Positions 9,306 to 33,801 of a stretch of DNA of 64,000 bases are shown here, piece after piece. The stretch's first letter is position 1; the number at the start of each line of letters is the position of its first letter. Source of the stretch: Caenimonas sp. (GTDB lineage: Bacteria; Pseudomonadota; Gammaproteobacteria; Burkholderiales; Burkholderiaceae_C); NCBI GenBank assembly GCA_040376925.1, contig JBEIPU010000003.1, forward strand, positions 1,798 through 65,797, read 5' to 3'. The notes beneath the pieces are model-generated. The model did no database searches, had not been told where the DNA came from, and was given only the letters and a program-made list of their open reading frames with translations. Position numbers and translations under genes: made by a program.

Positions 9306-10016
9306 TTAGCGCATGCTATCTTTTTGTTGCTGCTGCAGCCGGCGGACCACCCAGCGCGAAACCAGCGGCACCAGGGCCAGCAGCGCCAGCGCGCCCAGCA
9401 CGCCCGGGCTGACCAGGCCCTGCAGGGAATCCAGCCGGGCCAGCTCGCGCCCCGCGTTCACATAGGCGGCCGTGCCGGGCAGCATGCCGGCAAAGCTGGT
9501 CCAGGCAAAGGTGGATGCGCGCATGGGCACCACACCGGCCATCAGGTTGACCGGCACAAACGGGATCACCGGCAGCAGCCGCAGCGACAACATATAGAAC
9601 GCGCCGTCGCGCGCCAGCGCATCGGCGAACGCGGCGGTGCGCCCGCCCAGGCTGCGCTGCACCAGCGGGCGCAGCAGGTGGCGCGCGGTCAGCATGGTCA
9701 GCAATGCGCCGGTGGTGGACGCCAGCGTGGCCAGCAGGCTGCCGCCGACCAGCCCGAAAGTGGCGCCCGCCAGCAGCATCAGCACCGCCGCGCCCGGCAG
9801 GCAGGCGGCGGTCAGCAGGGTGAACACCGCAAAGTAGCCCAGCACCACCGCCAGCGGTGCGCGGGTGTAGGCCTGGGCAAACCCGGTCTGCGCCGCACGC
9901 ACATCTTCCATGCGCAGGTACTGCCAGGGCATCCATGCCCAGCACAGCAGGCAGATGGCGGCCAGCGCCAGCAGCAGCGCCACCGCAGGCCAGCGCGATG
10001 CGCGCGCGGGCGTCAT
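9306..10016 (-). CDS. TVP38/TMEM64 (DedA superfamily, SNARE-associated) membrane protein
   Basis: Polytopic protein with DGAFYMLSLRLLPVIPFVPVNLMAGV core. ATGA overlap with the patatin stop. Clear paralog of residues 1-230 of the 24191..26353 product. Confidence 0.8.
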   Translation of the reverse strand: MTPARASRWPAVALLLALAAICLLCWAWMPWQYLRMEDVRAAQTGFAQAYTRAPLAVVLGYFAVFTLLTAACLPGAAVLMLLAGATFGLVGGSLLATLASTTGALLTMLTARHLLRPLVQRSLGGRTAAFADALARDGAFYMLSLRLLPVIPFVPVNLMAGVVPMRASTFAWTSFAGMLPGTAAYVNAGRELARLDSLQGLVSPGVLGALALLALVPLVSRWVVRRLQQQQKDSMR

Positions 10017-10933: not shown

Positions 10934-13225
10934 TCAGGCCACCAGTGTGATGGGCTCCAGCGCATCGCCGCTGGCCAGGATGCGGCCGATCACGGCCGTG
11001 TGTTCGTAGCCCGCCTGGCGCAGCGCGGCCACGCAGTGCTGCACGCGGTCCGCCGGCACGCTGGCCAGCAGGCCGCCCGCGGTTTGCGGGTCAAACAGCA
11101 GCGCGTAGCGCGGGTGGTTCACAAAATCGGCCTGGTTGCGCAAGGCCCGGCGCAGCCGCACATTGGCCGGCGCCAATGAGCTGGTGATGCCCGCGGCCAC
11201 GCATTCCTCTGCGCCGTCCATGATCGGCAGCGCGTGCAGCCAGAGCTCGGCGTCCACGCCCGACGGTTTGGTCATCTCCACCAGGTGGCCCAGCAGGCCA
11301 AAGCCCGTCAGGTCGGTGCAGGCGGTGGCGCCGTGCGCCAGCAGCAGCTGCGCGCCGCGCTGGTTGGACACCACCATGGACTGCAGCGCGGCATCTATCC
11401 AGCGCCCGCGCGCGGCGCCGCGCGCATGGGCCGCAAACAGCGTGCCGGTGCCCATGGGTTTGGTCAGGATGAGCGCGTCGCCGGGTTTCAGGCCGCCCTT
11501 GCGCAGCACGGTGCGCAGGTCGTCGTCCACCAGGCCGTTGATCGCAAAGCCCAGGGCCAACTCCTTGCCCTCACCGGTGTGGCCGCCCACCAGCGCGCAG
11601 TTGGCGGCGTTCAGCACCTCCATGGCGCCGGTCATCATCTGGAACAGCAGGTCTTCGACCTTGGACTCCAGCCCCGGCGGCACTGTGACCACAGCGGTGG
11701 CCGATTGCGGCTCGCCGCCCATGGCAAACACGTCGCCCAGCGCATGGTTGGCCGCGACCTTGCCAAACAGGTAGGGGTCGTCAATGAACGCACGAAAGAA
11801 GTCCACGGTATGCACCATGGCCTTGCCCGGTGGCACGCGTACCACGGCCGCGTCGTCCGGCGCGTGCAGGCCGATCACCACGTCGTCGCGGTCCACCGGG
11901 TGCAGCGCGCCAAGGGCCCGCTGCAGCACCGTGGCGCCCACCTTGGCGCCGCAGCCGCCGCAGCGCATCGCAATGGCCGAGATCGCCTGCTGCGACTCAT
12001 CGGCCGTCAGCGCCAGCTGCGGGGCAGCAGGCGCGCTGCGCTGTGCGTCCATGGGCGGGAATTCGCTGAAGCGCTGCATGAAGCGGCGGTCGATCCAGTC
12101 CTTCCAGCGCCAGACCCATTTACCGCCAAAGCGCAGGCCCAGCGGCCCCTGGCCGCGTGAGGCCACGGCATAACGGTCGCCGGTGCTGATCAGGGCCAGC
12201 CAGTGGCGCTGCGGGCGGTAGGGGCGCAGGGGCTCGCCGCGCGCACTGCGGCGCAGGTTGTCGGCCAGCGGCGCGCCCATGCGCACGGCAAACACGCCGG
12301 CCTTTTCCAGCGCTCGCGGCTCGAATGCCGCCACATCGCCCGCACAGAAGATGCGCGCATCGTTCACGCTTTGCAGCTGGGCATTGACGCGCACAAAACC
12401 GTTGTCGTCCAGCGCCAGCCCGGTGCTGCGCAGCCACGCGGGGCCGCCGGCCTGCGTGACCCACATGATTTCGTCGGCAGCCAGCTTCTGGCCGTCCATG
12501 GTGGCAAGCTTGCCGGCGGTGACTTCGCGCACCTCGGCGCCGGTGTGTACCTGCACGCCGCGCTGGGCCAGCACCCGCGCAAAGCGCGCGCGCACGCCGG
12601 CGTTGTGCGTGGGCATGATGTGCGCGTCGCGCGTGAACAGGTGAAACACCAGCTCGTCCGGGTTGCGCCCGAGCGCCTGCAGCTCGCGTCGCAGCCGGTA
12701 CTGCATCGCCAGCGTCAGTTCCACGCCGCCCGCGCCGCCGCCCACCACGGCGATGGTGGTGGTGCCCGCATGGGAGCGCGCCCGCTCCAGCAGCGCCAGC
12801 CAGCGCTGGTTGAACTGGTGGATGGGTTTGACCGGCACGGCGTGCTCGGCCGCGCCCGGCACCCGCGCGACCTGCGGCGTGGAGCCGGTGTTGATGGCGC
12901 ACAGGTCGTACGGCACCGGCGGGCGGTTTCGGCACAGCACCTTGCCCGCTGCGAGGTCAATGCCAACCACTTCGTCACGGTAAAAGCGCGCACCGGCAAA
13001 CACCGCCAGGCGCCCGAGGTCGATGTGCACATCGTCGTAGCCATAGTGGCCGGCGATGTAGCCCGGCAGCATGCCTGAATAGGGCGTGTGGGCGTCGGTG
13101 CAGATCAGCGTGAGGCGCACGCCGGGCTCGGGGTTCATGCCAAATCGGCGCAGCACACCCACATGGCTGTGGCCACCGCCAATCAGCACAATGTCGCGCA
13201 GCACGGGTTGGTCGGTCAATTGCAT
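10934..13225 (-). CDS. selD: bifunctional pyridine nucleotide-disulfide oxidoreductase / selenide,water dikinase (SelD; SenC role)
   Basis: N-terminal IVLIGGGHSHVG and IAVVGGGAGGVE Rossmann motifs. C-terminal SelD domain from AMRCGGCGAKVG (Cys-type active site). ATG 13225 overlaps the senB stop by 1 nt. Confidence 0.85.
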   Translation of the reverse strand: MQLTDQPVLRDIVLIGGGHSHVGVLRRFGMNPEPGVRLTLICTDAHTPYSGMLPGYIAGHYGYDDVHIDLGRLAVFAGARFYRDEVVGIDLAAGKVLCRNRPPVPYDLCAINTGSTPQVARVPGAAEHAVPVKPIHQFNQRWLALLERARSHAGTTTIAVVGGGAGGVELTLAMQYRLRRELQALGRNPDELVFHLFTRDAHIMPTHNAGVRARFARVLAQRGVQVHTGAEVREVTAGKLATMDGQKLAADEIMWVTQAGGPAWLRSTGLALDDNGFVRVNAQLQSVNDARIFCAGDVAAFEPRALEKAGVFAVRMGAPLADNLRRSARGEPLRPYRPQRHWLALISTGDRYAVASRGQGPLGLRFGGKWVWRWKDWIDRRFMQRFSEFPPMDAQRSAPAAPQLALTADESQQAISAIAMRCGGCGAKVGATVLQRALGALHPVDRDDVVIGLHAPDDAAVVRVPPGKAMVHTVDFFRAFIDDPYLFGKVAANHALGDVFAMGGEPQSATAVVTVPPGLESKVEDLLFQMMTGAMEVLNAANCALVGGHTGEGKELALGFAINGLVDDDLRTVLRKGGLKPGDALILTKPMGTGTLFAAHARGAARGRWIDAALQSMVVSNQRGAQLLLAHGATACTDLTGFGLLGHLVEMTKPSGVDAELWLHALPIMDGAEECVAAGITSSLAPANVRLRRALRNQADFVNHPRYALLFDPQTAGGLLASVPADRVQHCVAALRQAGYEHTAVIGRILASGDALEPITLVA

Positions 13226-14211
13226 CAGGGCTTCCAGAGTTGGTCGACCAGGCGGCACAGCGCGGCCTGCTCGTTACCGGGTTCAAACAGGGGTGCGCGC
13301 CGCGCGCACTGCGCGGTCAGCCGCGCCATCAGGTCGCGCGGACCGGGGTGCGCAAGGCCTGCATGGCAGCGCAGCAGCAGGGCCGCCAGGCCGGCGGCGT
13401 CGCCGGGCTCAAAGTAGCCCGCGTAGCCCGTGCCCAGCATGCCGGTGTTGCCGTCAATGCGCGAGGCCAGCACCGGCGTGCCACAGCGCACGGCCTCCAT
13501 CACCACATGGGCGCCGCCTTCCATGCGGCTGGCATGCACCAGCAGGTGGGCGCGCTGGATGCGCCGGCGCGTGGCCTCATGCGCCAGCGCGCCCAGCCAG
13601 CGGTAGCCATGGCATTCGCGCATGGTGCTGCGCGCGGCGCGGCCCAGCGCCGCGTCCAGCGGCGCGCCGATGTGATCTATGCGGATGCCGGGCTCGTTGC
13701 GCAGCAGACGCGCGGCGGCCATCAGCGTCAGCGGGTCTTTCTCGTCACGCAGGTGGCCCACCATCACGGCACGCAGGTGGCGGTGTGTTTTGGGCAGGGT
13801 GGCGCGCTGTGACGTGGACTGGTAGATGACGCGGGCCTTGGCGCGCAGCGCTGCCGGCAGGGCTCGCGGCGCCTGGTCCTGCAGCACCACCAGGCGCTGC
13901 GCGGCGTCCACGCACGCGCGCGCCGCCGGGCTGCTTTCAATGTCGCGGTATAGGTCGGTGCCGGTCAGCACCACCGCCAGGCCGCGCGTGCCGCGCGCCT
14001 GCACCCAGGCCTGCACGGCCGGGGCGGACTTGCGCGCATGCAGGGCCAGCATCACGTCGTCGGCCTCCGCCGCAGCGTCGGGCCAGTCGCGCACGATGCG
14101 GGCAGAATGGCAGGCTCCGAGCATGCGTTGCCAGCGCCGCGCGGTCTGCCAGTTGCCGTTGTTGGCATCCGCCAGCGCGGGGCTCACGATCACGACGTTC
14201 GCTCGGTTCAT
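13225..14211 (-). CDS. senB: selenoneine-pathway selenosugar synthase-like glycosyltransferase (SenB-like)
   Basis: ATG 14211 (track start 14526 is a GC artefact). N-terminus VVIVSPALADANNGNWQTARRW and GT-B-like C-terminal half. Translationally coupled to selD. Confidence 0.7.
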   Translation of the reverse strand: MNRANVVIVSPALADANNGNWQTARRWQRMLGACHSARIVRDWPDAAAEADDVMLALHARKSAPAVQAWVQARGTRGLAVVLTGTDLYRDIESSPAARACVDAAQRLVVLQDQAPRALPAALRAKARVIYQSTSQRATLPKTHRHLRAVMVGHLRDEKDPLTLMAAARLLRNEPGIRIDHIGAPLDAALGRAARSTMRECHGYRWLGALAHEATRRRIQRAHLLVHASRMEGGAHVVMEAVRCGTPVLASRIDGNTGMLGTGYAGYFEPGDAAGLAALLLRCHAGLAHPGPRDLMARLTAQCARRAPLFEPGNEQAALCRLVDQLWKP

Positions 14212-14225
14212 GAAAGGGTTATAGC

Positions 14226-15401: not shown

Positions 15402-15412
15402 AAAACGGTGTT

Positions 15413-19122: not shown

Positions 19123-19950
19123 ATGACCCCACCCCGCGCCGCCAACACGCCGTACAAGCTGCCGCCGCCGCTGTTTGATGCGCGCTGCCGTGCCTGCTGG
19201 TTCACGCTGGCAATCGTCGTGCTGGTGGTGGCGAGCTTCTGGTCACTCAACCTGCAGTGGAAGCAGTTTCTGTCGCTGGACGCCGCGCGCAGCATGGGCA
19301 AGTTCCTGGGCGAATTTTTCCCGCCCGACCTGTCGCCCGCGTTCGTGACCAAGGTGGCCATCGGCGCCTGGGAAACGTTGGCCATGTCGGCGCTGGGCAC
19401 GCTGCTGGCCGTGGCCGGCGGGCTGGCGCTGGCGCTGCCGGCCAGCCGGCTGCACCAGGGCGACGCCGCCCGCACGCGTGGCGCCACGCGGCTGGTGCTG
19501 AACGCGCTGCGCAGCATCCCCGAGCTGGTGTGGGCCGCGCTGCTGCTGATCTCGGCCGGCCTGGGCCCGTTTGCCGGCACGCTGGCGCTGGCGCTGCACA
19601 CCACCGGCGTGCTGGGCCGCCTGTTTGCCGAAGCCATCGAGAACGCGCCCGCGGGCCCCGGCGATGCGCTGCGCGCACAGGGCGTGGGCAATGGCCGCGT
19701 GTTCCTGTATGCCACCTTGCCGCAGGTGCTGCCGCAGCTCATGAGCTACACCCTGTACCGCTGGGAAAACAACATCCGCGCTGCCGCCGTGCTGGGCGTG
19801 GTGGGCGCGGGCGGTCTGGGCCAGCTGCTGGCCTTTCACATGGGCCTGTTCCAGATGGGCAAGACAGCCACCATCCTGGGCGCGATGCTGCTGATGGTGG
19901 TGCTGGTGGATGCATTGAGTTATGTCTGGCGTCGCGCACTCATGCGCTGA
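19123..19950 (+). CDS. PhnE-like ABC transporter permease 2
   Basis: ATG 19123, 4 nt after the permease 1 stop. Paralogous LRSIPELVWAALLL motif. Confidence 0.8.
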   Translation: MTPPRAANTPYKLPPPLFDARCRACWFTLAIVVLVVASFWSLNLQWKQFLSLDAARSMGKFLGEFFPPDLSPAFVTKVAIGAWETLAMSALGTLLAVAGGLALALPASRLHQGDAARTRGATRLVLNALRSIPELVWAALLLISAGLGPFAGTLALALHTTGVLGRLFAEAIENAPAGPGDALRAQGVGNGRVFLYATLPQVLPQLMSYTLYRWENNIRAAAVLGVVGAGGLGQLLAFHMGLFQMGKTATILGAMLLMVVLVDALSYVWRRALMR

Positions 19951-19960
19951 AAGGGTTCCC

Positions 19961-20623
19961 ATGCGTGCCTGGCTGATCCGAACTCTGATACTGGCCGGCG
20001 CCGCGCTGCTGTCGGCCTGCGGCACACCCTATGCCACCGTGCCTAACAAGGCAGGCGAGCCCGTGATGCTGCTGGGCCATGACCCGGTGGCGTACTTCAC
20101 CCAGGGCAAGCCGGTGCGCGGCACGCCGGCCAACAAGGTGAGCCTGCCTGAGCGCACCTATTACTTTGCCAGCGCCGAACACCAGCGCCTGTTCCAGGCC
20201 GACCCGGCCAGGTACGAGCCGCAGTACGGCGGCTTTTGCGCCAGCGGCGCGGCCTTTGCCATCAAGCTGGGCAGCGACCCCACGGCCTGGCAGATCTACA
20301 ACGGCCGCCTGTTCATCTTCGGCGACGCCTTGGGCCAGACCGCCTGGGCCGTGGACCCGGCCTGGAACGTGGGCCATGGCGACCGCCTGTGGCCGGGCAT
20401 ACAGGACAAGGGTTGGCGGGCTGCATCGCTTGCGGCCTACACCAGCAAGGTACCCCACTACAAAACCGGTGCACAGATCAAGGCCGAACACGAAGCCAAA
20501 AACCCCGGCCAACCCTGGCCTGCCTACAACCCGGGCGGCATGGTGACCAACCTGTTCTTGAAGCGGCCTGGCTGGCGTGCGGCTGAGGGGTTTGGGCAGC
20601 CTGCGGTGGGGTATCCGGAGTAA
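19961..20623 (+). CDS. YHS domain-containing lipoprotein (Cys form of the YHS (seleno)protein family)
   Basis: ATG 19961, 10 nt after the permease stop. Lipobox LLSAC. HDPVAYF and QYGGFCASG motifs (TGC codon). Confidence 0.7.
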   Translation: MRAWLIRTLILAGAALLSACGTPYATVPNKAGEPVMLLGHDPVAYFTQGKPVRGTPANKVSLPERTYYFASAEHQRLFQADPARYEPQYGGFCASGAAFAIKLGSDPTAWQIYNGRLFIFGDALGQTAWAVDPAWNVGHGDRLWPGIQDKGWRAASLAAYTSKVPHYKTGAQIKAEHEAKNPGQPWPAYNPGGMVTNLFLKRPGWRAAEGFGQPAVGYPE

Positions 20624-20674
20624 TTTTCTCCGGCTGACAGCGCCCGTCCCGCCGGGCGCCTCAGCCGGAGAAAA
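20624..20674. terminator. 51-nt compound palindrome filling the spacer between the convergent YHS genes
   Basis: Perfect 14-bp arms TTTTCTCCGGCTGA / TCAGCCGGAGAAAA enclosing a 7-bp inner stem GCGCCCG/CGGGCGC. There is no free U-tail on either strand. Confidence 0.55.
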
Positions 20675-20676
20675 GA

Positions 20677-21273
20677 TTACTTCCGAGCCTTCGCATCCGC
20701 AACCATCTTCGCCAGCTCTTCACCGCTTTTGTAATGCGGCACGCGCAGCACCATGCGCTTGCTGCGCTGGATGAAGCTGTTGCTGCCGCTGACTTCTTCC
20801 TTCCAGTACTTGTCGGCCATCGCAACGTTGGCTTTCTCGTCGAGCAGGAAGGCGTCCATGGAGCCGCGCCCGCCGAAGATGTACAGCTTGCCGTCCACCA
20901 TCTTCCAGGTGTCTGCGTCGCCGCCCCAGGGGATGCCGTAGACGATGCCGTTGGCGCAATAGCCGCCGTACTGGGGCAGGTACTTGGCGGGCTCCTTGTC
21001 AAACAGCGCCTTGTGTTCGGCGCTGGCAAAGCGGAAGTCCACGCCCTGGTAGCTGCTGCGGTATTGCGGGCTGCCCTGGGCGAACTTGCCCTGGGTGAAG
21101 TAGGCCACCACGTCGGCGCCCTTGAGCATCAGGCGGCCTTCGGGGTTGTCGGCCACGGCGTTCACGGGCTTGAGCGTGCCCGAGGGGTTTTGCGCGGTGA
21201 TGGCGCCGCAGCCGGCCAGGGCGGCCACCAGGATGGCAGCGCCGCCGGTGCGCAGCAGGACAGAAGAGGTCAT
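20677..21273 (-). CDS. YHS domain-containing lipoprotein, paralog 2
   Basis: Lipobox LAGC. ADVVAYF and QYGGYCANG motifs (TGC codon). ATG overlaps the ATP-grasp stop (ATGA). Confidence 0.7.
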   Translation of the reverse strand: MTSSVLLRTGGAAILVAALAGCGAITAQNPSGTLKPVNAVADNPEGRLMLKGADVVAYFTQGKFAQGSPQYRSSYQGVDFRFASAEHKALFDKEPAKYLPQYGGYCANGIVYGIPWGGDADTWKMVDGKLYIFGGRGSMDAFLLDEKANVAMADKYWKEEVSGSNSFIQRSKRMVLRVPHYKSGEELAKMVADAKARK

Positions 21274-22664
21274 GGGAAAGTCTCCGGGGTTGTAGGTTCA
21301 GTGTGACGTGGAGTGTGAGCCCTGCCGGGGCCCGGCAGTTCCCGCCCCGGTGCGTGGGCATGCAGGTCGGCATACGGCGGCGTCCAGCCCAGCAACGAGC
21401 TGGCCACCTCGCAGCGCCGGCGCAGGTCGGCCGCGTCGGCACCGCCCAGGTGCACGATGCCGTAGCGGTGGCTGCCCAGCCATTTGAAGTCGCGCGCCAC
21501 CGAGCCCGCGGTTTTGGGGAACTCCAGCAACAGCGCGTCGGGGTAGGCCTCGTGGAACACCTGGCGCTGCAAGGCCGTGGGTACCGGCGGCGCGCGCCAC
21601 GGGTCGAACAGCCGGTACACAAAGCTCGCCGCAGCGCCTGCCGTGGGCGTGCGGCGCGGCACAGCCGCCGGGTCCTGCCCGTGGGCCAGCGCAAACGCCA
21701 TGTCGTGCAGGTTGATGCCGTCCACGCGCTGGTACAGGTCCGAGAACTGCGACGCCAGGCGCGGGTTGAACTCAATCACCGTGACGCGGCCGGTGGCCGG
21801 GTCATGGAAAAACTCCATGTTGAACATGCCGTGGGTGAAGCCCACCTCGGCCAGGAAACGGCGCGCGACGTCGGCCGCGCGCGCCACCACATCCGCGGGC
21901 AGGCGGGTGGGGTAGTCAAACCGCATGAACGATTCCGTGCCCGGGTACATCTGGATGTCCACACACCCCAGCAGGTGCATCTGGCCGCCCTGCACATAGC
22001 CGTCCAGGCAGTACTGCGGCGCGTCCACCACGGCTTCGGTCATCAGGCTGTGGGCCGTGCCGGCCTCGGGCAGGCGCTTGGCCACGACGCGTTCAAACGG
22101 CTCGACCAGGTGGCGGATGACCCACAGCTCCCAGGCACCAAAACGGGTGTGGGCATGAAGTTCGTCGTGGCTCTTCACGGTGCGCGCCAGCACCGAAAAG
22201 GCCGCCTTCACCGGCTTGACGAACAGCGGGTAGGCCAGGCCCTGTGGCACCGGGCCGCCGTATTTCGCATCAAGCCGTGCAAACGGCGGGTTGGCGTCGG
22301 GGCAGATGCGCTGCAGCACCTCGCGCGCGTACAGCTTGTGCTGGCAGGCCAGCACGGCCTTGACCGGCGTGCCGGGCCAGCCCATGCGCTCGGCCAGCAG
22401 CGCGGCGGCCAGCGCGCCAAACTGCTCGTGGTTGGACACCACGGCCTTCAGGCCCATGCGCCGGGCGCGGCGCGCCCACAGCGCCACAAAGCGGTCCATG
22501 TCAAACCAGGCCAGCCGTGCGTTGCTGGGAAAGCTGAACAGGTCAAAGCCTGCGCTGATGTGCGGCCAGCGCTGCGCCAGCCGGGCAAATTCGCGCTGGT
22601 CCCAGTCGTAGTTGAACAGGACCAGCGTGGCGGGGTGGTGGGAGTGCATGGGGGGCTTACGCAT
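21270..22664 (-). CDS. ATP-grasp domain protein
   Basis: ATG 22664 (1-nt overlap with the upstream stop) or ATG 22649. ATP-grasp core YPLFVKPVKAAFS ... VIEFNPRLASQF. Confidence 0.7.
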   Translation of the reverse strand: MRKPPMHSHHPATLVLFNYDWDQREFARLAQRWPHISAGFDLFSFPSNARLAWFDMDRFVALWARRARRMGLKAVVSNHEQFGALAAALLAERMGWPGTPVKAVLACQHKLYAREVLQRICPDANPPFARLDAKYGGPVPQGLAYPLFVKPVKAAFSVLARTVKSHDELHAHTRFGAWELWVIRHLVEPFERVVAKRLPEAGTAHSLMTEAVVDAPQYCLDGYVQGGQMHLLGCVDIQMYPGTESFMRFDYPTRLPADVVARAADVARRFLAEVGFTHGMFNMEFFHDPATGRVTVIEFNPRLASQFSDLYQRVDGINLHDMAFALAHGQDPAAVPRRTPTAGAAASFVYRLFDPWRAPPVPTALQRQVFHEAYPDALLLEFPKTAGSVARDFKWLGSHRYGIVHLGGADAADLRRRCEVASSLLGWTPPYADLHAHAPGRELPGPGRAHTPRHTEPTTPETFP

Positions 22665-23392
22665 CAGGGGGCGAGCTGGATGTCGGCGATCCAGGCCAGG
22701 CTGCGCGCGCCGGTGTTGTCGGCGTCGGCGCCTACCGCCACCGCCTGCAACGGGGGCAGGGTGGGGCTTTCGCTGCCGAACAGGCGGGCAAAGTCGGCCT
22801 GGAGGTTGCGCTGGTGGCTGCGCCACTGGCCGGTCGGGCTGGCGGCGCCGTCCAGCACCAGGTAGCGCACCCGGGCTGAATACGCATTGGGCAGCACGGT
22901 GCCCTGCGCCAGGGTCACGTCCCACACATAGCAGACGGTGGCAGCCGGCAGGGGCTCGCCCGACACGGCGCGTGCCAGGCGCAGCAGGCTGCGCTCCACG
23001 AACGGCACGCGGTCCAGCGGCATGTCAAACATCAGGCAGACCTTGAGCGCGGCGTCATCAGCGTCCTTGCGGCGCAGGTCGGCCCCTGCCACGGGCTGGT
23101 CCAGCCGCCAGCGCCAGCGCAGCGTGGCCTCGCGGCCGGCCAGCCAGCCGTTCAGGTCGTGCACCAGGCTGGCGTACGACGCGTCGGCACGCAGTCGCAG
23201 CGCGGGCGCGCCGTCCAGCGTGGCGATGTCCATGGCAGTGAGCGGCGCCTTGTTGTTTGGCAGGCCCACGGTGCGCCACGCTGCCGCTGCCAGCGGTGCC
23301 AGCAGCGGCCCATGCTGCGCGGGCTGGGCCAGCGCGCTAGCGGCCCAGATCGTTAAGAGACCAGTCGTAGTCCAGGTGCGTGATCGGAACAT
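22664..23392 (-). CDS. DUF3047 domain protein, secreted
   Basis: Signal peptide MFRSRTWTTTGLLTIWAASALAQP. DDAALKVCLMFD and CYVWD motifs recalled for DUF3047. Confidence 0.65.
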   Translation of the reverse strand: MFRSRTWTTTGLLTIWAASALAQPAQHGPLLAPLAAAAWRTVGLPNNKAPLTAMDIATLDGAPALRLRADASYASLVHDLNGWLAGREATLRWRWRLDQPVAGADLRRKDADDAALKVCLMFDMPLDRVPFVERSLLRLARAVSGEPLPAATVCYVWDVTLAQGTVLPNAYSARVRYLVLDGAASPTGQWRSHQRNLQADFARLFGSESPTLPPLQAVAVGADADNTGARSLAWIADIQLAP

Positions 23393-24155
23393 TGCGGGCC
23401 CTGATTTTCTCGCGGTCGGCCGGTGCGTCGGCCAATTGGTCGGCGTAGCGTGCCATCACGTCTTCCAGCTTGTTGAAACCCTTGTGGCCTTTTTCAAAGT
23501 CTTCGCGGAACCACTTGAAGATCATGTTGACCTGCAGCTTGCCGTCGGCATAGCGGTTGCGGGTGCGGTCGCCCATGAAGCGCAGCATGCCGTCGTCCAG
23601 CTGCGCGTCCAGCCTGGCCGCCACAAAGGCCTCGGGCCGCAGCGCCGGGCAGCCGATGCTGGCGCAGTTGACGGCGGCGTGCACGCGTGGCTCGCTGTAC
23701 CGGGGGCGCAGCTGCTCGTGCTCGATCCAGTCCAGGTGGCGCGGCTCGCCCAGCAGGGTGAAGAACTTGTTCTTCCACGGCGACTGCAGCAGCGAGCCCA
23801 GGTCCTTGATCGACTTGAGGCCGGGGTATTTGGTCAGGATCAGCTCCACGGTGAAGCCGTTGTAGGCGTTGATCAGGAACGCCATCTGCTGCTCGCGCGG
23901 CAGCGCGGCAAACTGCGCGGGCGTCACGGCCGACCATTCGGCCAGCACGGCCTTGAGCGCGGCGCGGTCGGCGGCAAAGCCCTTGTAGTCCACGCGCGAC
24001 TGCTTGTTGTCGGGCAGCCATTTCACATGCTTTTTGAGCAGGGCGTCCCAGGCGGCGTAGCCGGTGTCCAGCGCGGCGGCCGGGGCCCAGGCCGCGGGCG
24101 CGGCTGCAGCGAGCGCGCCGGTGGCGATGAGGTGCAGGGCGGTGCGGCGCTTCAT
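23337..24155 (-). CDS. DUF547 domain protein, secreted
   Basis: ATG 24155 gives signal peptide MKRRTALHLIATGALAAAAPAAWA. ATG 24194 would overlap the upstream stop (ATGA). FLINAYNGFT and HAAVNCASIGCPAL motifs. Confidence 0.7.
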   Translation of the reverse strand: MKRRTALHLIATGALAAAAPAAWAPAAALDTGYAAWDALLKKHVKWLPDNKQSRVDYKGFAADRAALKAVLAEWSAVTPAQFAALPREQQMAFLINAYNGFTVELILTKYPGLKSIKDLGSLLQSPWKNKFFTLLGEPRHLDWIEHEQLRPRYSEPRVHAAVNCASIGCPALRPEAFVAARLDAQLDDGMLRFMGDRTRNRYADGKLQVNMIFKWFREDFEKGHKGFNKLEDVMARYADQLADAPADREKIRARNVPITHLDYDWSLNDLGR

Positions 24156-24190
24156 GGTGTCGGCCTTGCGGAGTTGGAGTGGGTGGGCGT

Positions 24191-26353
24191 TCATCTGCGC
24201 TTCCAGTCGTGGTATTTGCGCACCCATTGCAGCAGCTGGTGCGGCTGGTGTGCGCGCTTCCATTCACCGGCGGCGTATTTGTTGGCCTCTGACAGCGTGG
24301 GGTAGGTGTGGATGGTGCCCAGCATCTTGTTCAGGCCCAGGCCGTGTTTCATGGCCAGCACGTATTCAGCCAGCAGGTCGCCTGCGTGCGTGCCCACGAT
24401 GGTCACGCCCAGGATGGTGTCCTTGCCCGGCATGGTCAGCACCTTCACAAAGCCATGGGCTTCGCTGTCGGCAATCGCGCGGTCCAGGTCGTCAATGCCG
24501 TATTTCGTGACTTCATAGGCAATGTTCTTTTCCTTCGCGTCCTGCTCGTTCAGGCCCACGCGCGCGACCTCGGGGTCAATGAACGTGGCCCAGGGGATCA
24601 CGCTGTAGTCCGCCTTGAATTTCTTGAAGTCGCCAAACAGCGCATTCACCGCCGCGTACCAGGCCTGGTGCGCCGCCACATGGGTGAACTGGAACGGGCC
24701 CGCCACGTCGCCCGCCGCATAGATGTTGGGGTAGATCGTCTGCAGGTACTCGTTGGTATCCACCGTCTTCTGCGTGGGGATGCCCAGATCCTCCAGGCCG
24801 TAGCCCGTCAGGCGCGCCGTGCGGCCCACGGCGCACAGCAGCGCGTCAAAGGCAATGCGCTTTTCGGCTCCGTTGTGTTCCACCACCAGCACCTTGGTCT
24901 CACCCTCACGTTCGCAGCGCAGCGCCTTGTGGCCGGTCAGCACCTGTACGCCGTCGGCTGTGAGCGCGTCGCGCGCCAGGGCCGAGACCTCAACGTCTTC
25001 GCGGATCATGATGCGCGCGGCCATCTCCACCTGTGTGACCTGCGAGCCCAGCCGCGCGAAGCTTTGCGCCAGCTCGCAGCCGATCGGCCCGCCGCCCAGC
25101 ACCACCAGGCGCTGGGGGATGTCGTCCAGCTGGGCAAAGGTGCTCCACAGCGTGTCACTGGTCACGTAGCCCACGTCCTGAAGCCCCGGCAGCGGCGGCA
25201 CAAAGGGGCGGGCGCCGGCGGCAATGACGATGTTGCGCGTGGTCACCACCTGTTTGCCGCCGCCGTTCAGCGCCACCTCCACCGTCCAGGGGTTGATGAT
25301 CTTGGCGTAGCCCTGCAGCACCTCCACGCCCAGACTGGTGTAGCGCTCCACGCTGTCGTGCGGCTCGATCGCGGCGATCACGTCGTGGATGCGCTGCATC
25401 ACCGCGCGGAAGCTGAAGGTGGGTGCGGCGTCGTTCAGACCGTAGCGGTGAGCGTGGCGCATCTGGTGCGCCAGCTTGGCGCTCTTGATCAGTGCCTTGC
25501 TGGGCACGCAGCCGTAGTTCAGGCAGTCGCCGCCCATCTTGTGGGCTTCCACCAGCGTGACCCTGGCCTTGACCGCCGCGGCAATGTAGGCCGACACCAG
25601 CCCGCCCGCGCCCGCGCCGATCACCACCAGGTTGCGGTCAAATGTCTTGGGCCGCACTGCGCGCCAGCGCGCATAGACCTTGCGCTTTTGCACGGCCTCA
25701 ACAAGCTTGCGCGCCACCAGCGGAAAGATGCCCAGCAGCACAAAAGAACCCAGCAGCCCCGGCGACAGGATGCCGCGCAGCGATTCAATCTGCGCCAGCT
25801 GCGTGCCCGCGTTCACAAACACCGCCGTGCCCGCCAGCATGCCCAGCTGGCTGACCCAGTAAAACGTCCAGGCCCGCATCTGGGTCAGGCCCATCACCAG
25901 GTTGATCACAAAAAACGGCACAACCGGGATCAGCCGCAGCGTGAACAGGTAAAACGCGCCGTCTTTCTGCACGCCGCGGTTGATTTCGGCCAGCCGGTTG
26001 CCAAAGCGTGCCTCGATGCTGTCGCGCAACACAAACCGCGCCACCAGGAACGCCAGCGTCGCGCCCGCGCTGGACGCAAAAGACACGACCAGCAGCCCCC
26101 AGCCCAGGCCAAAGATCGCGCCGCCGGCCAGCGTAAGGATGGTGGCGCCGGGCAGTGACAACGCCGTGGCCGCGACATAGATCAGGAAATAAGTGCCGGC
26201 CACCAGCAGCGGCCGTGTCTGCACCAGCGCGGCAAACTGCGACTGGCTCTGCTTGAGGTAGTCCAGGCTCAGGAACCGGCCCAGGTCCAGCGCGAAAAAG
26301 GCGGCAACCGCCGCCACGACCAGCACGACAAGGACGATTTTTTTGGTGTTCAT
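24191..26353 (-). CDS. TVP38/TMEM64 membrane domain fused to class-I pyridine nucleotide-disulfide oxidoreductase
   Basis: N-terminal polytopic domain (DGAFYLFTLRLIPVVPFFVINLVMG). Then VVIGAGAGG, redox CLNYGCVPSK, second Rossmann VVLGGGPIGCE, and HTYPTLSE in the dimerisation domain. Confidence 0.85.
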   Translation of the reverse strand: MNTKKIVLVVLVVAAVAAFFALDLGRFLSLDYLKQSQSQFAALVQTRPLLVAGTYFLIYVAATALSLPGATILTLAGGAIFGLGWGLLVVSFASSAGATLAFLVARFVLRDSIEARFGNRLAEINRGVQKDGAFYLFTLRLIPVVPFFVINLVMGLTQMRAWTFYWVSQLGMLAGTAVFVNAGTQLAQIESLRGILSPGLLGSFVLLGIFPLVARKLVEAVQKRKVYARWRAVRPKTFDRNLVVIGAGAGGLVSAYIAAAVKARVTLVEAHKMGGDCLNYGCVPSKALIKSAKLAHQMRHAHRYGLNDAAPTFSFRAVMQRIHDVIAAIEPHDSVERYTSLGVEVLQGYAKIINPWTVEVALNGGGKQVVTTRNIVIAAGARPFVPPLPGLQDVGYVTSDTLWSTFAQLDDIPQRLVVLGGGPIGCELAQSFARLGSQVTQVEMAARIMIREDVEVSALARDALTADGVQVLTGHKALRCEREGETKVLVVEHNGAEKRIAFDALLCAVGRTARLTGYGLEDLGIPTQKTVDTNEYLQTIYPNIYAAGDVAGPFQFTHVAAHQAWYAAVNALFGDFKKFKADYSVIPWATFIDPEVARVGLNEQDAKEKNIAYEVTKYGIDDLDRAIADSEAHGFVKVLTMPGKDTILGVTIVGTHAGDLLAEYVLAMKHGLGLNKMLGTIHTYPTLSEANKYAAGEWKRAHQPHQLLQWVRKYHDWKRR

Positions 26354-27471
26354 GTGTTCTCCTGCAACCTGCCGGCCAGGCGCAAACCGCCCATTGGAGC
26401 ATAGCCAGCGCGTGAGGCCATGGCCGGTTGCGGGACGGTGAAGCGGTAGAAGAAGTTGCCGTCGCGCACCGGGTGCTCACCCGTCACATGCTCGATCAGC
26501 CCGAAGCGCAGCAGGCGGTTGAGCAGGATCTCGGCCTCATGCGATCGCAGCTTGAGCCGCCGGGCCAGCCACTGCACGGCCTCGGCCCCCACAAAGCAGC
26601 GCGCGTAGGTGGTGCCCAGGTAGGTCCGGTCTTTCACGTCCAGGCCCGAAGGCTGGCTCACCAGGGCATACACCGCGCCCAGGTTCCAGCGGTCCACGGC
26701 GCTGGCCAGCGTGGGGCGGTAAAAGTTGGGCAGGTCGGCAAACGGCTGTTCATGCACCACATGCTGCAGCAGGTCCAGCGCCTGCAGGTCCAGCCCCAGG
26801 CGTACGGCGGCCGGCCGCTTGAGCTTGAAGCGGTTGCCCAGCCAGTCCACCACCTCGGTGCCGGTGTGGCACGACGGGTAGGTCTTGAAGTGGTACATGC
26901 GGTCGATGGCCTTGACGTGGCTGGCCATGGCGTGGCACAGCGCCTCGGCCGTGAGGCCGGTGGCGCGGCGGATGCGGTGGCGCGGCGCGGCATCGTCCAG
27001 CTTGACCTGCATGGCACTGAAGTACTGGGCCAGCGCCTCGGGCGGCAGCGGCGGTGCGCCTGCCAGGCGCGCCAGGCATTCCACCAGCGGCTGGCCCGGC
27101 TGTGCCAGCGACACCGGGTCCAGGTCGGCCCACAGCCCGGCAAAGCCCAGCTCCAGCGCCCAGGCCTGCTCGGTGGGCCACAGCCCGGCCAGCTCGCGCG
27201 TGAGCACGACGCGGGCACGGCGCTGGGGATCGGGCAGCGCCGCAGCCAGGGCGATCAGGCTGGAGGCCGCCGGGGCGATGGCCGCCATGTCAATCACGGC
27301 CACGCTGTGCGGCTGGGCCACCAGCGCGGCGTCCAGCCGGGCCAGCGCGTCGGGCCCGGCCACCAGGTCGGCCGGCGGCTGGCGCATGGCCATGCAGACA
27401 GCGCGCAGGGCCTGGCGGGCAGCGTCTGATGCCAGGCACAGCCAGACAGTGGGAGGCAGGGGGGTGTTCAT
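26350..27471 (-). CDS. tandem DEP-domain protein with receiver-like N-terminal region
   Basis: Two DEP-like repeats (YPSCHTGTEVVDWL...LLQHV...FYR and YARCFVGAEAVQWL...RSHEAEILLNRLLRFGLIEHV...FFYRF). Stop overlaps the next ATG (ATGA). Confidence 0.65.
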   Translation of the reverse strand: MNTPLPPTVWLCLASDAARQALRAVCMAMRQPPADLVAGPDALARLDAALVAQPHSVAVIDMAAIAPAASSLIALAAALPDPQRRARVVLTRELAGLWPTEQAWALELGFAGLWADLDPVSLAQPGQPLVECLARLAGAPPLPPEALAQYFSAMQVKLDDAAPRHRIRRATGLTAEALCHAMASHVKAIDRMYHFKTYPSCHTGTEVVDWLGNRFKLKRPAAVRLGLDLQALDLLQHVVHEQPFADLPNFYRPTLASAVDRWNLGAVYALVSQPSGLDVKDRTYLGTTYARCFVGAEAVQWLARRLKLRSHEAEILLNRLLRFGLIEHVTGEHPVRDGNFFYRFTVPQPAMASRAGYAPMGGLRLAGRLQENT

Positions 27472-27500
27472 GGGCGGCAACCAGTGGGGTGGACCAACCG

Positions 27501-30661: not shown

Positions 30662-30692
30662 GTGAGTCATGGCGGGGCCTGCTTTCTTACCC
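30662..30692 (-). promoter_or_regulatory. shared promoter-region box, copy B (upstream of the RR/HK operon)
   Basis: 30673-30692 CGGGGCCTGCTTTCTTACCC. See copy A. Confidence 0.35.
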
Positions 30693-30776
30693 AATTGTTA
30701 TCCAGTTGTGATCTTTCGTGAGGGCGGCGTGAGCCTGGGCGCCCACAGTCCATCCATCGACACCGAAGGACACACC

Positions 30777-31337
30777 ATGCAAGCCCCCACACCCGCCCAG
30801 ACCGACGCCCTGAACCCGCTTGACTGCGTGGTGGAGGGCGCCCAGCTGCACCCCCACCGCGCCTACCTGCTGCGCGTGGCCCGCAACAAGCTGCGCGACC
30901 CGGCGCTGGCCGAGGACGCAGTGCAGGATGTGTTCGAGGCCGTGCTGGCCGGTCGCGCCCGGTTTGGCGGGCGCAGCGCCCTGCGCACCTGGCTCACCGG
31001 CATCCTGCTGCACAAGGTGACCGACCTGCAGCGCCAGGGCATGCGCTACTGCGCGCTGGACGCCGGGCGTGACGACGATGACGAAGCTGCCGACGCGCAC
31101 GACACCGCCTGCGACGCCCCCGGCCCCGAAGACAGCGCCGGGCAGCGCGAGCTGCTGGCGCGCACGCTGGCCTGCATCGACCGCCTGCCCGCTGCGCTGC
31201 GCGACGTGATGTGGCGCCGCGCCATCCATGACGAGCCGACCGAAACCGTGTGCCGCCAGCTGGGCATCACGCCCGACGCGATGTTTGTGCGCCTGCACCG
31301 CGCCCGCCGCCAGATTGAAGCCGCCGTGCTGTGCTGA
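30777..31337 (+). CDS. ECF-type RNA polymerase sigma factor
   Basis: ATG 30777. Region 2 (AEDAVQDVFEAV...LRTWLTGILLHKVTD) and region 4 (LPAALRDVMWRR...QLGITPDAMFVRLHRARRQI). Confidence 0.8.
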   Translation: MQAPTPAQTDALNPLDCVVEGAQLHPHRAYLLRVARNKLRDPALAEDAVQDVFEAVLAGRARFGGRSALRTWLTGILLHKVTDLQRQGMRYCALDAGRDDDDEAADAHDTACDAPGPEDSAGQRELLARTLACIDRLPAALRDVMWRRAIHDEPTETVCRQLGITPDAMFVRLHRARRQIEAAVLC

Positions 31338-31417: not shown

Positions 31418-32494
31418 ATGCCTGACGACAGCGCCACCTTGACCGCCCGCCTGGCTGCTGCCCTGCAGGGCAGCAACAGCCCCTGGGCCGGCGCTGCGCT
31501 GGAGCGCCTGCCTGACAAGGGCCTGGCGCACGACCATGTGCGCATCAACGGCAGCGGGCTGCTGGCGCGCATCCCCAAGCAAAGCCAGATGCGCCTGGCG
31601 CCCGCCGACAACCTGGCCTACCAGGCCGCGTGCTTTGAACGCGCCGCCGTCGGCGGCCATGCCCCGCGCCTGCACGGCGTGCTGGCGCCGTCGGCCCAGT
31701 TACCGCGTGGCGCGCTGCTGGTGCAGGAGGTGGTGGGCCGCGCGGCTGCCCTGCCGGCTGATCTGCCCGCCATCGTGCAGGCGCTGGCCGCGCTGCATGC
31801 GCTGCCCCTGCCCGCGCCGCACGCGCGCCGCCCGCTGCTGGACGACGCCGATGCGCTGGCCGCACTGTATGAAGAGCTGGCGCAGCAGGCGCAGTACCTG
31901 GCGGCGGCTGGCGTGGCCCCCGCCGTGGCCCGTGCCGTGACGCAGGAGCTGCAGCGGCTGAACGCGTTGTGCGCCGCCGACGCCCGGCCGCCGCGCCACC
32001 TGATCGCGTTTGACGGCCACCCGGGCAACTTCATCGTGCAGGGCCACGGGCACGCCGTGCTGGTGGACCTGGAGAAATGCCGCTACAGCTACCCCGCGCT
32101 GGACATCGCCCATGCGACGCTCTACACGTCCACCACGTGGGACGAGGAATCCAGTGCCGTGCTCACGCCCGCACAGGTGCAGGGCGCCTACGCCGCCTGG
32201 GCGGCCGCCGTGGGCCCGCGCGTGGCCGGCCCGGCGCAGGCCTGGCATGTGCCGCTGCGCCGCGCCATGTGGTTGTGGTCCATCACCTGGTGCGCCAAAT
32301 GGCGTGTGCTGTCTGCTGCCGGTGCGCCGCTGGATGCGGCGGGCGAGGACTGGTCCGCCGGCCAGAGTGACGCCGCACTGGTGGCCCATGTGCGTGGCCG
32401 GGTGGACCATTACCTCGGCGCCGATGTGGTGGCGCGCATGCGGGACGAATTTGACGCGCTGGAGGCTGCACTGGCCCAGGCGCCTGCTTCATGA
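31418..32494 (+). CDS. APH/choline-kinase-fold phosphotransferase
   Basis: Catalytic loop LIAFDGHPGNFIV and metal-binding VLVDLEKCRYSYPALDIAH. Confidence 0.7.
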   Translation: MPDDSATLTARLAAALQGSNSPWAGAALERLPDKGLAHDHVRINGSGLLARIPKQSQMRLAPADNLAYQAACFERAAVGGHAPRLHGVLAPSAQLPRGALLVQEVVGRAAALPADLPAIVQALAALHALPLPAPHARRPLLDDADALAALYEELAQQAQYLAAAGVAPAVARAVTQELQRLNALCAADARPPRHLIAFDGHPGNFIVQGHGHAVLVDLEKCRYSYPALDIAHATLYTSTTWDEESSAVLTPAQVQGAYAAWAAAVGPRVAGPAQAWHVPLRRAMWLWSITWCAKWRVLSAAGAPLDAAGEDWSAGQSDAALVAHVRGRVDHYLGADVVARMRDEFDALEAALAQAPAS

Positions 32495-33801
32495 CGCTGG
32501 CCATCATCGTGCCCGTGCTGAACGAAGGCGCCGCGCTGGCCGCGCGGCTGCAGGCGCTGCAGCCGTTGCGCAGCCGGGGCGCCGAGCTGATGGTGGTGGA
32601 CGGCGGCAGCACCGATGGCAGCGTGGCTGTGGCCGCAGCGCTGGCCGACCAGGTGCTGACCGCGCCGCGCGGGCGCGCCGCCCAGATGAACGCCGGGGCC
32701 TGCGCCACGCGGGCCGGCACGCTGCTGTTCCTGCATGCCGACACGCAACTGCCGCCCGACGCCGATGCATTGATTGAACAGGCCCTGGATGCCGGCTGTG
32801 CATGGGGCCGATTCGACGTGCACATTGCCGGTGCCCACCCACTGTTGCCCATGGTGGCGGCTTTCATGAACGCGCGCTCGCGCATTACCGGCATCGCCAC
32901 CGGCGACCAGGCGATGTTTGTGCGCCGGGCCGTGTTCAACGCCGTGGGCGGTTTTGCGCCGCAGCCGCTGATGGAAGACATCGCCCTGAGCCGCCGCCTG
33001 CGCGCCGTGGGTGCCCCGGCCTGCCTGGCCGCGCGCGTCATCACATCGGGCCGCCGCTGGGACGAGCACGGCCTGTGGCGCACCATCGCTTTGATGTGGC
33101 GGCTGCGCGCGGCGTACTTTCTGGGGGCCAGCCCGCAGGCCCTGGCCGCGCGCTACGGCTATGCCACCCGCGCACCGGCAGCGCTGGCCATCCTGGCCAA
33201 GGCGCCGGTGCCGGGTCTGGCCAAAACCCGGCTCATTCCCGCTTTGGGTGCCGCCGGTGCGGCCCGCGCGCAGCGCGGCTTTGCGCTGCAAACGCTGGCC
33301 ACCGCGCGCGCCGCAGCCACCGGCTCCGTGGCGCTGTGGTGCGCGCCCGATGCACGCCACCGTTTCTTTGCCGCCTTGCGCGCGCGCCACGGCGTGGCCT
33401 GCGAGACGCAACCCGGCGGCGACCTGGGGGAGCGCATGGGCATGGTGATGCGCCGGCACTTTGCCGCTGCGCCCGCGATGCCGCTGCTGATCGTGGGCAC
33501 AGACTGCCCGGTGCTGACGCCGGCGCACCTGCAACAGGCCGCTGACCTGCTGCAGAAGAACGACGCCGTGCTGATCCCGGCCGAAGACGGCGGCTATGTG
33601 CTGATCGGCCTGCGCCGGCCCCTGCCTTCGGTATTTGAAGGCATCACCTGGAGCACGCCGCAGGTGCTGATGCAAACCCGCGAGCGGCTGCTGGCTGCGG
33701 GCGTGAGCTGGCAGGAGCTGCCCGCGCTGTGGGATGTGGATGAGCCGCTGGACTGGGCGCGGTGGCAGCGCCAGCGCGACAAGGAGAAACGCATTGACTG
33801 A
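32491..33801 (+). CDS. fused GT2-like (TIGR04283-like) / DUF2064 (TIGR04282-like) transferase
   Basis: N-terminal half: IIVPVLNEG, VVDGGSTDGS, GRAAQMNAGA, LFLHADT, GDQAMF, MEDIALS. C-terminal half: KAPVPGLAKTRL, VGTDCP, EDGGYVLIG. ATGA overlap with the kinase. Confidence 0.7.
   Translation: MTLAIIVPVLNEGAALAARLQALQPLRSRGAELMVVDGGSTDGSVAVAAALADQVLTAPRGRAAQMNAGACATRAGTLLFLHADTQLPPDADALIEQALDAGCAWGRFDVHIAGAHPLLPMVAAFMNARSRITGIATGDQAMFVRRAVFNAVGGFAPQPLMEDIALSRRLRAVGAPACLAARVITSGRRWDEHGLWRTIALMWRLRAAYFLGASPQALAARYGYATRAPAALAILAKAPVPGLAKTRLIPALGAAGAARAQRGFALQTLATARAAATGSVALWCAPDARHRFFAALRARHGVACETQPGGDLGERMGMVMRRHFAAAPAMPLLIVGTDCPVLTPAHLQQAADLLQKNDAVLIPAEDGGYVLIGLRRPLPSVFEGITWSTPQVLMQTRERLLAAGVSWQELPALWDVDEPLDWARWQRQRDKEKRID

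Follow-up and report, generated by a model that had tools for sequence, protein, structure and literature searches.

Among DedA proteins of the COG0398 type, the commonest domain fusions are those with PF07992 and PF02852 (Todor et al. 2023, mBio, PMC10127716), and PGAP annotates the combination of PF09335, PF07992 and PF02852 as a 'bifunctional TVP38/TMEM64 family protein/FAD-dependent oxidoreductase'. The transport substrates of DedA proteins are a live question, and a DedA domain welded to a reductase provides a direct biochemical handle on it. Here we analysed a stretch of 64,000 nucleotides from Caenimonas sp. (the window), in which the gene at 24191..26353, on the minus strand, encodes a protein of 720 amino acids (aa) that belongs to the PGAP group, with the same domains in the same order and a length close to the group's 720 aa or so. 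This fusion is an ordinary member of a widespread and annotated family, and its architecture was already known. From the company that it keeps in many genomes, we tentatively propose that the DedA domain, the reductase and a secreted DUF547 protein may form one transmembrane unit handing over a thiophilic substrate, most likely a metalloid; we regard this reading as possible and would not yet call it probable.

The DedA-reductase fusion protein

The gene was characterized from its open reading frame (ORF), by Pfam and NCBIfam searches, and with an AlphaFold2 (AF2) model that was submitted to Foldseek. The DedA domain covers aa 1-230 (nt 25664-26353, minus strand) and includes a Pfam VTT_dom match at aa 70-184 (E 2.5e-24, 86.5 bits against a cut-off of 33.9); a Lys/Arg-rich linker (aa 215-245) joins it to a flavoprotein reductase at aa 241-720, a class-I pyridine-nucleotide disulfide reductase (PNDR) with Pyr_redox_2 at aa 241-564 (E 1.7e-58) and the PNDR dimerisation domain Pyr_redox_dim at aa 586-694 (E 2.2e-28). 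The N-terminal 233 aa align with the stand-alone DedA protein encoded at 9306-10016 (44% identity over 200 aa, E 3e-47), and the motifs VVIGAGAGG, CLNYGC (C277/C282), VVLGGGPIGCE and HTYPTLSE were all found. The Pfam domains, the alignment with the paralogue and these motifs bear out the initial annotation, in which a DedA domain joined to a complete class-I reductase had been recognized. The AF2 model has a pLDDT of 93 and a pTM of 0.84, and Foldseek superposes it on structures of dihydrolipoyl dehydrogenase (LipDH), the best match, and of MerA, with a TMt of about 0.9. The third-position GC of the ORF, 0.87, is typical for genes of this 68% GC window.

The membrane part is of the COG0398-type DedA/TVP38 subfamily. 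Ten Lys or Arg residues lie in aa 215-245, after the last hydrophobic helix, and because of these charges and of the need for NADH and FAD, the side of the membrane on which the reductase sits is predicted to be the cytoplasm. Short broken helices at aa 65-75 and 133-154 of the AF2 model coincide with the expected sites of re-entrant loops; Arg140, which falls there, is invariant in the fused relatives, as are P68, G78 and A98, and no acidic residue of the membrane domain reaches 90% conservation among them. The complete Cys set of the protein comprises residues 277, 282, 426, 480 and 507. Since C507 is the last Cys and the tail (...YHDWKRR) is Cys-free, there is no C-terminal Cys pair, nor is there a Cys in the membrane domain. 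The conserved, Cys-free C-terminal helix (...H.WRRG in the relatives) runs past the usual PNDR end in the model, and no HMA domain was found by Pfam.

The redox-active CLNYGC (C277...C282; 25508..25525, minus strand) keeps both Cys in 39 of 42 diverse fused relatives. HTYPTLSE (aa 682-689; 24287..24310, minus strand), which had been listed among the marks of a complete reductase, is indeed present, but it is not the canonical His motif, given that Tyr684 takes the place of the acid-base His of LipDH and glutathione reductase (GR). In HMMER alignments Tyr684 falls on His444 of E. coli Lpd (TIHAHPTLHE), the catalytic acid-base His of that enzyme, and on the Tyr of MerA 5x1y (APYLTMAE). Among the 42 fused relatives, Tyr684 is found in 39 and Glu689, kept in our protein, in 36, with Asp in five more, and HxYPTxxE occurs in 27 of 31 unfused reductase representatives. 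Because Tyr684 is common to fused and unfused relatives, the reductase is, on these alignments, a Tyr-type family that is MerA-like at the His position yet without the MerA C-terminal cysteines. The beta-2 strand of the NAD fold ends in VTQVE, resembling the VVE of Lpd and unlike the QRS of MerA, which suggests that NADH is the preferred nucleotide; a Glu stands at this strand end in 25 of the 42 relatives.

The best curated NCBIfam model was NF004991, 'FAD-containing oxidoreductase', with 485 bits against a cut-off of 620. Scores also stayed below cut-off with the models for LipDH (TIGR01350, 386.2 against 408.8 bits), MerA (TIGR02053, 367.3 against 454.45), GR (262 against 480), RclA (211 against 740) and hypothiocyanous acid (HOSCN) reductase (235 against 650), and were far under it with those for mycothione and trypanothione reductases. 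The nearest solved relatives of the reductase are MerA 5x1y (240 bits) and LipDH (231 bits). The source is a metagenome-assembled genome (MAG) of 3.9 Mb in 228 contigs, 83% complete, in which genome-wide absences are not proven; MerT (PF02411) was not found in it, no mer genes were seen among the neighbours of the fusion in the window, and separate LipDH-like paralogues are encoded elsewhere in the same genome. The protein had been described as not a classical MerA, and with its sub-cut-off MerA score, no C-terminal Cys pair, no HMA domain and no MerT, that description stands. An identity as MerA, LipDH or GR was rejected on the sub-cut-off scores, the His to Tyr replacement and the missing C-terminal Cys pair. 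A comparison had also been suggested with the reductase domain (TIGR03169) fused to SelD at 10934-13258; it gave no meaningful similarity to the reductase of our protein (E 0.21), and the two fall into different PNDR subfamilies.

A search of 5.8 billion clustered proteins returned at least 8000 clusters that match the fusion, and the best 120 of these matches all have the same architecture at 82-94% identity, with near relatives in Hydrogenophaga and Ramlibacter. In their sources the relatives go under the names 'FAD-dependent oxidoreductase', 'Mercuric reductase', 'dihydrolipoamide dehydrogenase/uncharacterised membrane protein' and 'bifunctional TVP38/TMEM64 family protein/FAD-dependent oxidoreductase', the last being that of the Hydrogenophaga protein P0079 (83% identity over 100% of length). 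An exhaustive HMMER search among 50%-identity representatives recovered full-length fusions by the dozen, the most distant at 36% identity. Roughly 32 of 100 genera in the family have a full-length orthologue. So do 37 of the 301 genomes in one even sample of the phylum, which draws heavily on family f38 and was also used for the co-occurrence searches, and 80 genomes of named species belonging to Beta-, Gamma- and Alphaproteobacteria, Desulfobulbales, Desulfuromonadales and Oligoflexia. So many full-length orthologues rule out an assembly or frameshift artefact. Reductase and DedA lie as adjacent separate genes in 8 of the 301 genomes, and a tree of 87 representatives contains about 12 changes between the fused and the unfused state, where some of the 'unfused' entries are possibly truncated gene calls. 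Decayed fusion copies were seen in two genomes (G009:C1:186644-188803 and G063:C6:364846-366729), one in pieces and the other with three in-frame TGA codons.

The DUF547 partner and the conserved neighbourhoods

The gene for the DUF547 protein (23337..24194, minus strand; Pfam PF04784) encodes a signal peptide and an invariant CASIGC (nt 23649-23666). The pattern C-A-S-x-[GS]-C was found in 45 of 45 DUF547 orthologues adjoining the fusion, at identities of 29-100%, and 40 of these proteins have exactly two Cys. For the co-occurrence searches the reductase clade was defined as fused or unfused matches with E <= 1e-75, and 58 of the 68 genomes of the phylum sample with DUF547 also carry this clade (odds ratio (OR) 11, p 4e-14). 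A search for longer proteins revealed DedA-DUF547 fusions in several clusters, built either as DedA, one extra transmembrane helix and DUF547, or as signal peptide, DUF547 and DedA; both orders would put DUF547 on the side opposite to the DedA C-terminus. One database protein, of 984 aa, unites DedA, PNDR and DUF547. Judging from these architectures, DedA is the hub of three components that different lineages join in pairs. The AF2 model of DUF547 has a pLDDT of 92.6; in the PDB, Foldseek had no match with an E-value under 0.08, and the best hits of a wide VIA search (Z 5.2) were unrelated helical proteins. Co-folding of the DedA domain (aa 1-236) with DUF547 scored 0.00, a result that is neutral as to binding. 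In two further proteins, P0272 (579 aa) and P0271 (517 aa), a nucleoside hydrolase or a reductase C-terminus is joined to DUF547 with the internal signal peptide retained, and because of that peptide they are probably read-through or frameshift calls, which would still indicate that the genes are adjacent in their genomes.

To map the neighbours, a tblastn panel was applied within 10 kb of the fusion at 80 named loci. ArsS, the radical SAM enzyme by which arsenic is adenosylated on the way to oxo-arsenosugars (PMC12159101, citing Cheng et al. 2021), was present at 20 loci, in Beta- and Gammaproteobacteria and Oligoflexia, almost always directly upstream and on the same strand; DUF547 (21 loci) was almost always directly downstream. 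TIGR04283 was found at 21 of the loci, TIGR04282 at 18 and ArsM at 12, along with TIGR03169-like genes (27), CDP-alcohol phosphatidyltransferases (21), DUF3047 (19), extracytoplasmic function (ECF) sigma factors (14), OlsE-like hydroxylases (5) and SelD (4). At locus L046 the NCBIfam and Pfam matches run in the order ArsS, fusion, TIGR04283, TIGR04282, DUF3047 and ArsM, with a divergent nucleoside phosphorylase. In many loci the fusion is directly followed by GT2 genes, and patatin genes adjoin DedA genes in the window and at L027 and L031. In the phylum sample, 109 genomes have both the reductase clade and TIGR04283 (OR 16.7, p 4e-27), and the clade is likewise associated with ArsS (OR 6.1); the evidence from gene position is independent of these statistics. 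Taken together, the conserved context of the family points to organo-arsenic-type clusters with ArsS, ArsM, TIGR04282 and TIGR04283, and to lipid head-group genes.

At five loci (L053:8512-9477, L058, L059, L137 and L160), among them those of a Methylophilaceae MAG and of Nitrosomonas mobilis, another radical SAM protein occupies the usual ArsS spot, its best family being Rv1681 (93 bits) and its ArsS score 48 bits; ArsM and TIGR04283 accompany this substitute in three of the five. The small CDP-alcohol phosphatidyltransferase, for example at L029:11252-11857, has archaetidylinositol-phosphate and PIP synthases as its best NCBIfam models, both under cut-off. The query panel detected none of its arsenic or sugar genes near the fusion in Sphingomonadales, Paracoccus and Grimontia.

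The initial annotation had favoured import-coupled reduction of a chalcogen oxyanion or of a disulfide or selenotrisulfide, and a phyletic test set beforehand went against the selenium assignment: SelD is carried by 10 of the 37 genomes with the fusion and by 85 of the 301 overall (OR 0.93, p = 1), which is the background rate, and SelD co-occurrence was rejected as support for selenium at the scale of the phylum. Within the family sample SelD is near-universal (90 of 101) and therefore does not discriminate. At closer range, the window holds genes for SenA, a likely SenB, a TIGR03169::SelD fusion and a protein of the YHS '(seleno)protein' family. All 14 complete TIGR03169::SelD genes detected among 101 Comamonadaceae-level genera, plus two partial ones, are in genomes with the fusion or a decayed copy of it; at L026 and L036 the TIGR03169::SelD gene belongs to the fusion's own gene string, and in other genomes the fusion regularly has a stand-alone TIGR03169 gene nearby. 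A selenium-import reading is thus only locally supported, in Comamonadaceae, through the partner TIGR03169 fused to SelD. TIGR03169::SelD and the fusion are often 4-16 kb apart on one contig (e.g. G058:C1, G037:C5 and G052:C22). The paper on DedA and selenite to which the initial annotation pointed, Ledgham et al. 2005, does exist, and its title ties DedA to selenite resistance.

Within the phylum sample, the 17 genomes with both the fusion and ArsS (17 of 17) are without SelD, while the nine with the fusion and TIGR04283 and without ArsS are the SelD-bearing fused carriers minus one (families f1, f4, f18 and f20). This split may be a lineage effect, or one system may exist in two versions, one for arsenic and one for selenium.

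A proposed hand-over of a thiophilic substrate and competing explanations

In the unit that we propose, the periplasmic dithiol of DUF547 would capture a thiophilic substrate, which the Cys-free DedA domain, with its invariant Arg140, would carry across the membrane. At the cytoplasmic mouth the dithiol of the NADH-type reductase would bind the substrate and reduce it, or keep it reduced, for cytoplasmic enzymes. For ArsS-type clusters this substrate would be arsenic; for the ArsS-less, SelD-linked version of the window it might be selenium. Such a unit would be MerP-MerT-MerA in logic, not in descent. The analogy to MerT and MerA that the initial annotation had drawn is strengthened by the MerA-like Tyr, by the secreted DUF547 with its invariant CxxxxC and by the DUF547-DedA fusions, whereas the selenium assignment attached to it is not supported, with SelD at background rate and a context of the arsenic type. 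A more specific form, an uptake-and-reduction relay that gives trivalent methylarsenicals to ArsS and ArsM, and selenide to TIGR03169::SelD in ArsS-less versions, seems to us rather unlikely to hold as stated.

Several observations weigh against the hand-over of a metalloid. The DedA substrates reported as shown are lipids, namely undecaprenyl phosphate and phospholipids (PMC10127716), and the absence of Cys from the DedA domain makes a MerT-like thiol relay within it impossible. The Caenimonas genome itself gave a best match to ArsS (TIGR04167) of 21.9 bits against a cut-off of 300 in an 83%-complete MAG, no match to ArsM with a single query (the L046 ArsM-like protein) in an incomplete genome, and no alternative radical SAM gene. 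Among the 37 carriers, 11 are without TIGR04283, 20 without ArsS and 27 without SelD, and the co-occurrence statistics ignore kinship in a sample that family f38 dominates. In Marinomonas, Pseudocolwellia, Salinimonas, Grimontia and Sphingomonadales the neighbours of the fusion are a PIP-synthase-like CDP-alcohol phosphatidyltransferase, an OlsE-like hydroxylase or TauE, which points to lipids or to a general stress role. In the literature we found no experimental work on any member of the fusion family, and PMC10127716 alone mentions the fusion.

These lipid neighbours lead to another explanation, in which DedA flips a lipid made by the cluster, the reductase tunes the redox state either of the head group or of its synthesizing enzyme, and DUF547 and DUF3047 are the proteins that work on the lipid in the periplasm. 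The candidates would be an arsenosugar-type phospholipid, or a polyprenyl- or diacylglycerol-linked 5-substituted ribose produced by TIGR04282, the TIGR04283 GT2 and the CDP-alcohol phosphatidyltransferase. For bacterial and eukaryotic DedA proteins, flipping or scrambling of lipids is the activity reported as shown, and COG0398 falls together with the eukaryotic scramblases (PMC10127716); the phosphatidyltransferases and OlsE-like hydroxylases near the fusion (21 and 5 of 80 loci), the patatin genes beside DedA and the GT2 genes downstream would fit as well. A flipped lipid gives no account, however, of why a dithiol reductase with a MerA-like site should be joined to a flippase, or of the invariant CxxxxC in the periplasmic partner, and the 11 of 37 carriers without TIGR04283 can be cited on either side. 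We consider this explanation unlikely. A layout of cytoplasmic NADH-type disulfide reductase, membrane protein and secreted CxxxxC protein, variously fused, would also suit an export of reductant with DsbD-like logic, the reductase regenerating a small thiol or redox carrier that DedA passes on and that keeps the CxxxxC of DUF547 reduced. The Cys-free DedA domain excludes a direct thiol-disulfide relay, the replacement of His by Tyr removes the usual acid-base catalyst for disulfide substrates, and we know of no carrier for such a model, so that we hold it to be improbable.

The metalloid hand-over also has to be set against a membrane-anchored reductase for oxidant or metal stress, of the RclA Cu(II) or HOSCN type and under ECF-sigma control, with ArsS and SelD as secondary neighbours. 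The sub-threshold matches to HOSCN reductase (235 bits) and RclA (211 bits) speak for it, as do the ECF sigma gene beside the fusion at 14 of 80 loci and in the window at 30669-31337, the occurrence of the fusion without metalloid genes in several marine Gammaproteobacteria, and the example of rclABC, where a PNDR is likewise encoded with one periplasmic and one membrane protein. Yet all NCBIfam scores are far under their cut-offs, and TIGR04283 and ArsS are strongly linked to the fusion, by gene position as well as by presence in the genome; we think such a reductase quite improbable. A classical MerA, LipDH or GR with a membrane anchor would agree with the best solved relatives, MerA and LipDH, and with the superposition of the folds, but MerA (367/454 bits), LipDH (386/409) and GR (262/480) all miss their cut-offs, there is no C-terminal Cys pair, NmerA or MerT, the His is replaced by Tyr, and the genome has its LipDH-like paralogues besides; this explanation can hardly be credited.

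If the uptake-and-reduction relay proved true, it would supply the first defined non-lipid substrate for COG0398 DedA proteins and would fill the reductase and the transport step of arsenosugar-type pathways. The neighbourhoods also indicate candidate genes for steps of bacterial arsenosugar and arsenolipid synthesis. As for annotation, the names 'mercuric reductase' and 'dihydrolipoyl dehydrogenase' are unsuitable for the family.

The operon in the window and comparison with known systems

The fusion is the second gene of a six-gene string on the minus strand, in the order DEP, fusion, DUF547, DUF3047, ATP-grasp and YHS, which from its junctions is read as a translationally coupled operon. 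The first gene (26350..27480) encodes tandem DEP domains, matched by Pfam DEP in two stretches, and its stop overlaps the ATG of the fusion in an ATGA; the stop of the fusion overlaps the ATG of the DUF547 gene in the same way, and the DUF547 start is therefore placed at ATG 24194. The next gene (22664..23392) is for a secreted DUF3047 protein (Pfam PF11249, E 1.2e-53) with a signal-peptide-like start, and a TGATG overlap connects it to the ATP-grasp gene (21270..22664, likely start ATG 22664), which shares an ATGA with the last gene, that of a YHS-domain (seleno)protein-family protein (20677..21273; NF041384, 112.9 bits against a cut-off of 70). No homologue of the DEP gene was found beside the fusion in any of 20 family loci examined, and the tandem-DEP gene looks like a local addition. 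Two convergent YHS-domain genes are present at 19922-21273, and in the spacer after the YHS gene that ends the operon lies a long palindrome (TCTCCGGCTGA...TCAGCCGGAGA).

Elsewhere in the window, a selenoneine-type locus (10934-16381) comprises the gene for SenA (14226-15401; NF041186, 466 bits against a cut-off of 420), a glycosyltransferase ORF (13225-14526, minus strand) that is likely SenB by its appearance, and the gene for the TIGR03169 (Nterm_to_SelD) flavoprotein fused to SelD (10934..13258, minus strand; NCBIfam). A patatin gene and the stand-alone DedA paralogue (9306..10016, minus strand) are appended to this senB / TIGR03169::selD / patatin string, the paralogue at its end. On the opposite strand to the fusion and 6 kb from it, a fused TIGR04283 and TIGR04282 'arsenosugar biosynthesis glycosyltransferase' gene (32491..33801, plus strand) exceeds both NCBIfam cut-offs (265.5 bits against 182, and 198.5 against 134). 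It is flanked by genes for an APH-family kinase and an IU-type nucleoside hydrolase (31418-34795), in place of which other genomes have a nucleoside phosphorylase. A nucleosidase with a kinase is the logic of 5-methylthioribose salvage, and by this analogy the input at the locus could be a 5'-substituted adenosine other than an arsenical.

When compared with known systems, the fusion shares with MerA of the mer systems of Tn501 and Bacillus the class-I PNDR fold, the CxxxxC and the Tyr at the catalytic His position, and with MerA, MerT and MerP as a set the logic of periplasmic thiol protein, membrane protein and cytoplasmic reductase. It departs from MerA in having neither a C-terminal Cys pair nor NmerA/HMA, and in a nucleotide fold that appears to be of the NADH type, that of MerA being of the NADPH type; its Cys-free DedA domain is unrelated to MerT, and DUF547 is unrelated to MerP. 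Compared with E. coli Lpd (4jdr), it likewise ends its NAD beta-2 strand in 'VxVE' and has kept the Glu of the His-Glu dyad, whereas it has a Tyr for His444, a membrane domain and no 2-oxoacid dehydrogenase context. In the neighbourhoods with ArsS, ArsM, TIGR04282 and TIGR04283, many genomes have the fusion flanked by ArsS on one side and by the two transferase genes on the other; unlike those clusters, the window has it in a string with DUF547, DUF3047, ATP-grasp and YHS, within a selenium-gene island, and we found no published role for this reductase in the arsenosugar pathway.

With the undecaprenyl phosphate flippases (COG0586) and the scramblases TMEM41B and VMP1, the fusion has in common the VTT/DedA domain and, in the predicted model, broken helices of the re-entrant type. 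It differs from the DedA lipid transporters in being of the COG0398 type and fused to a reductase, and in lacking an acidic membrane residue at 90% conservation. DsbD and CcdA relay electrons through membrane Cys pairs, and the DedA domain of the fusion is without Cys; what the fusion and its partner do share with them is a set of genes that together provide reducing power in the cytoplasm, a protein in the membrane and a dithiol protein in the periplasm.

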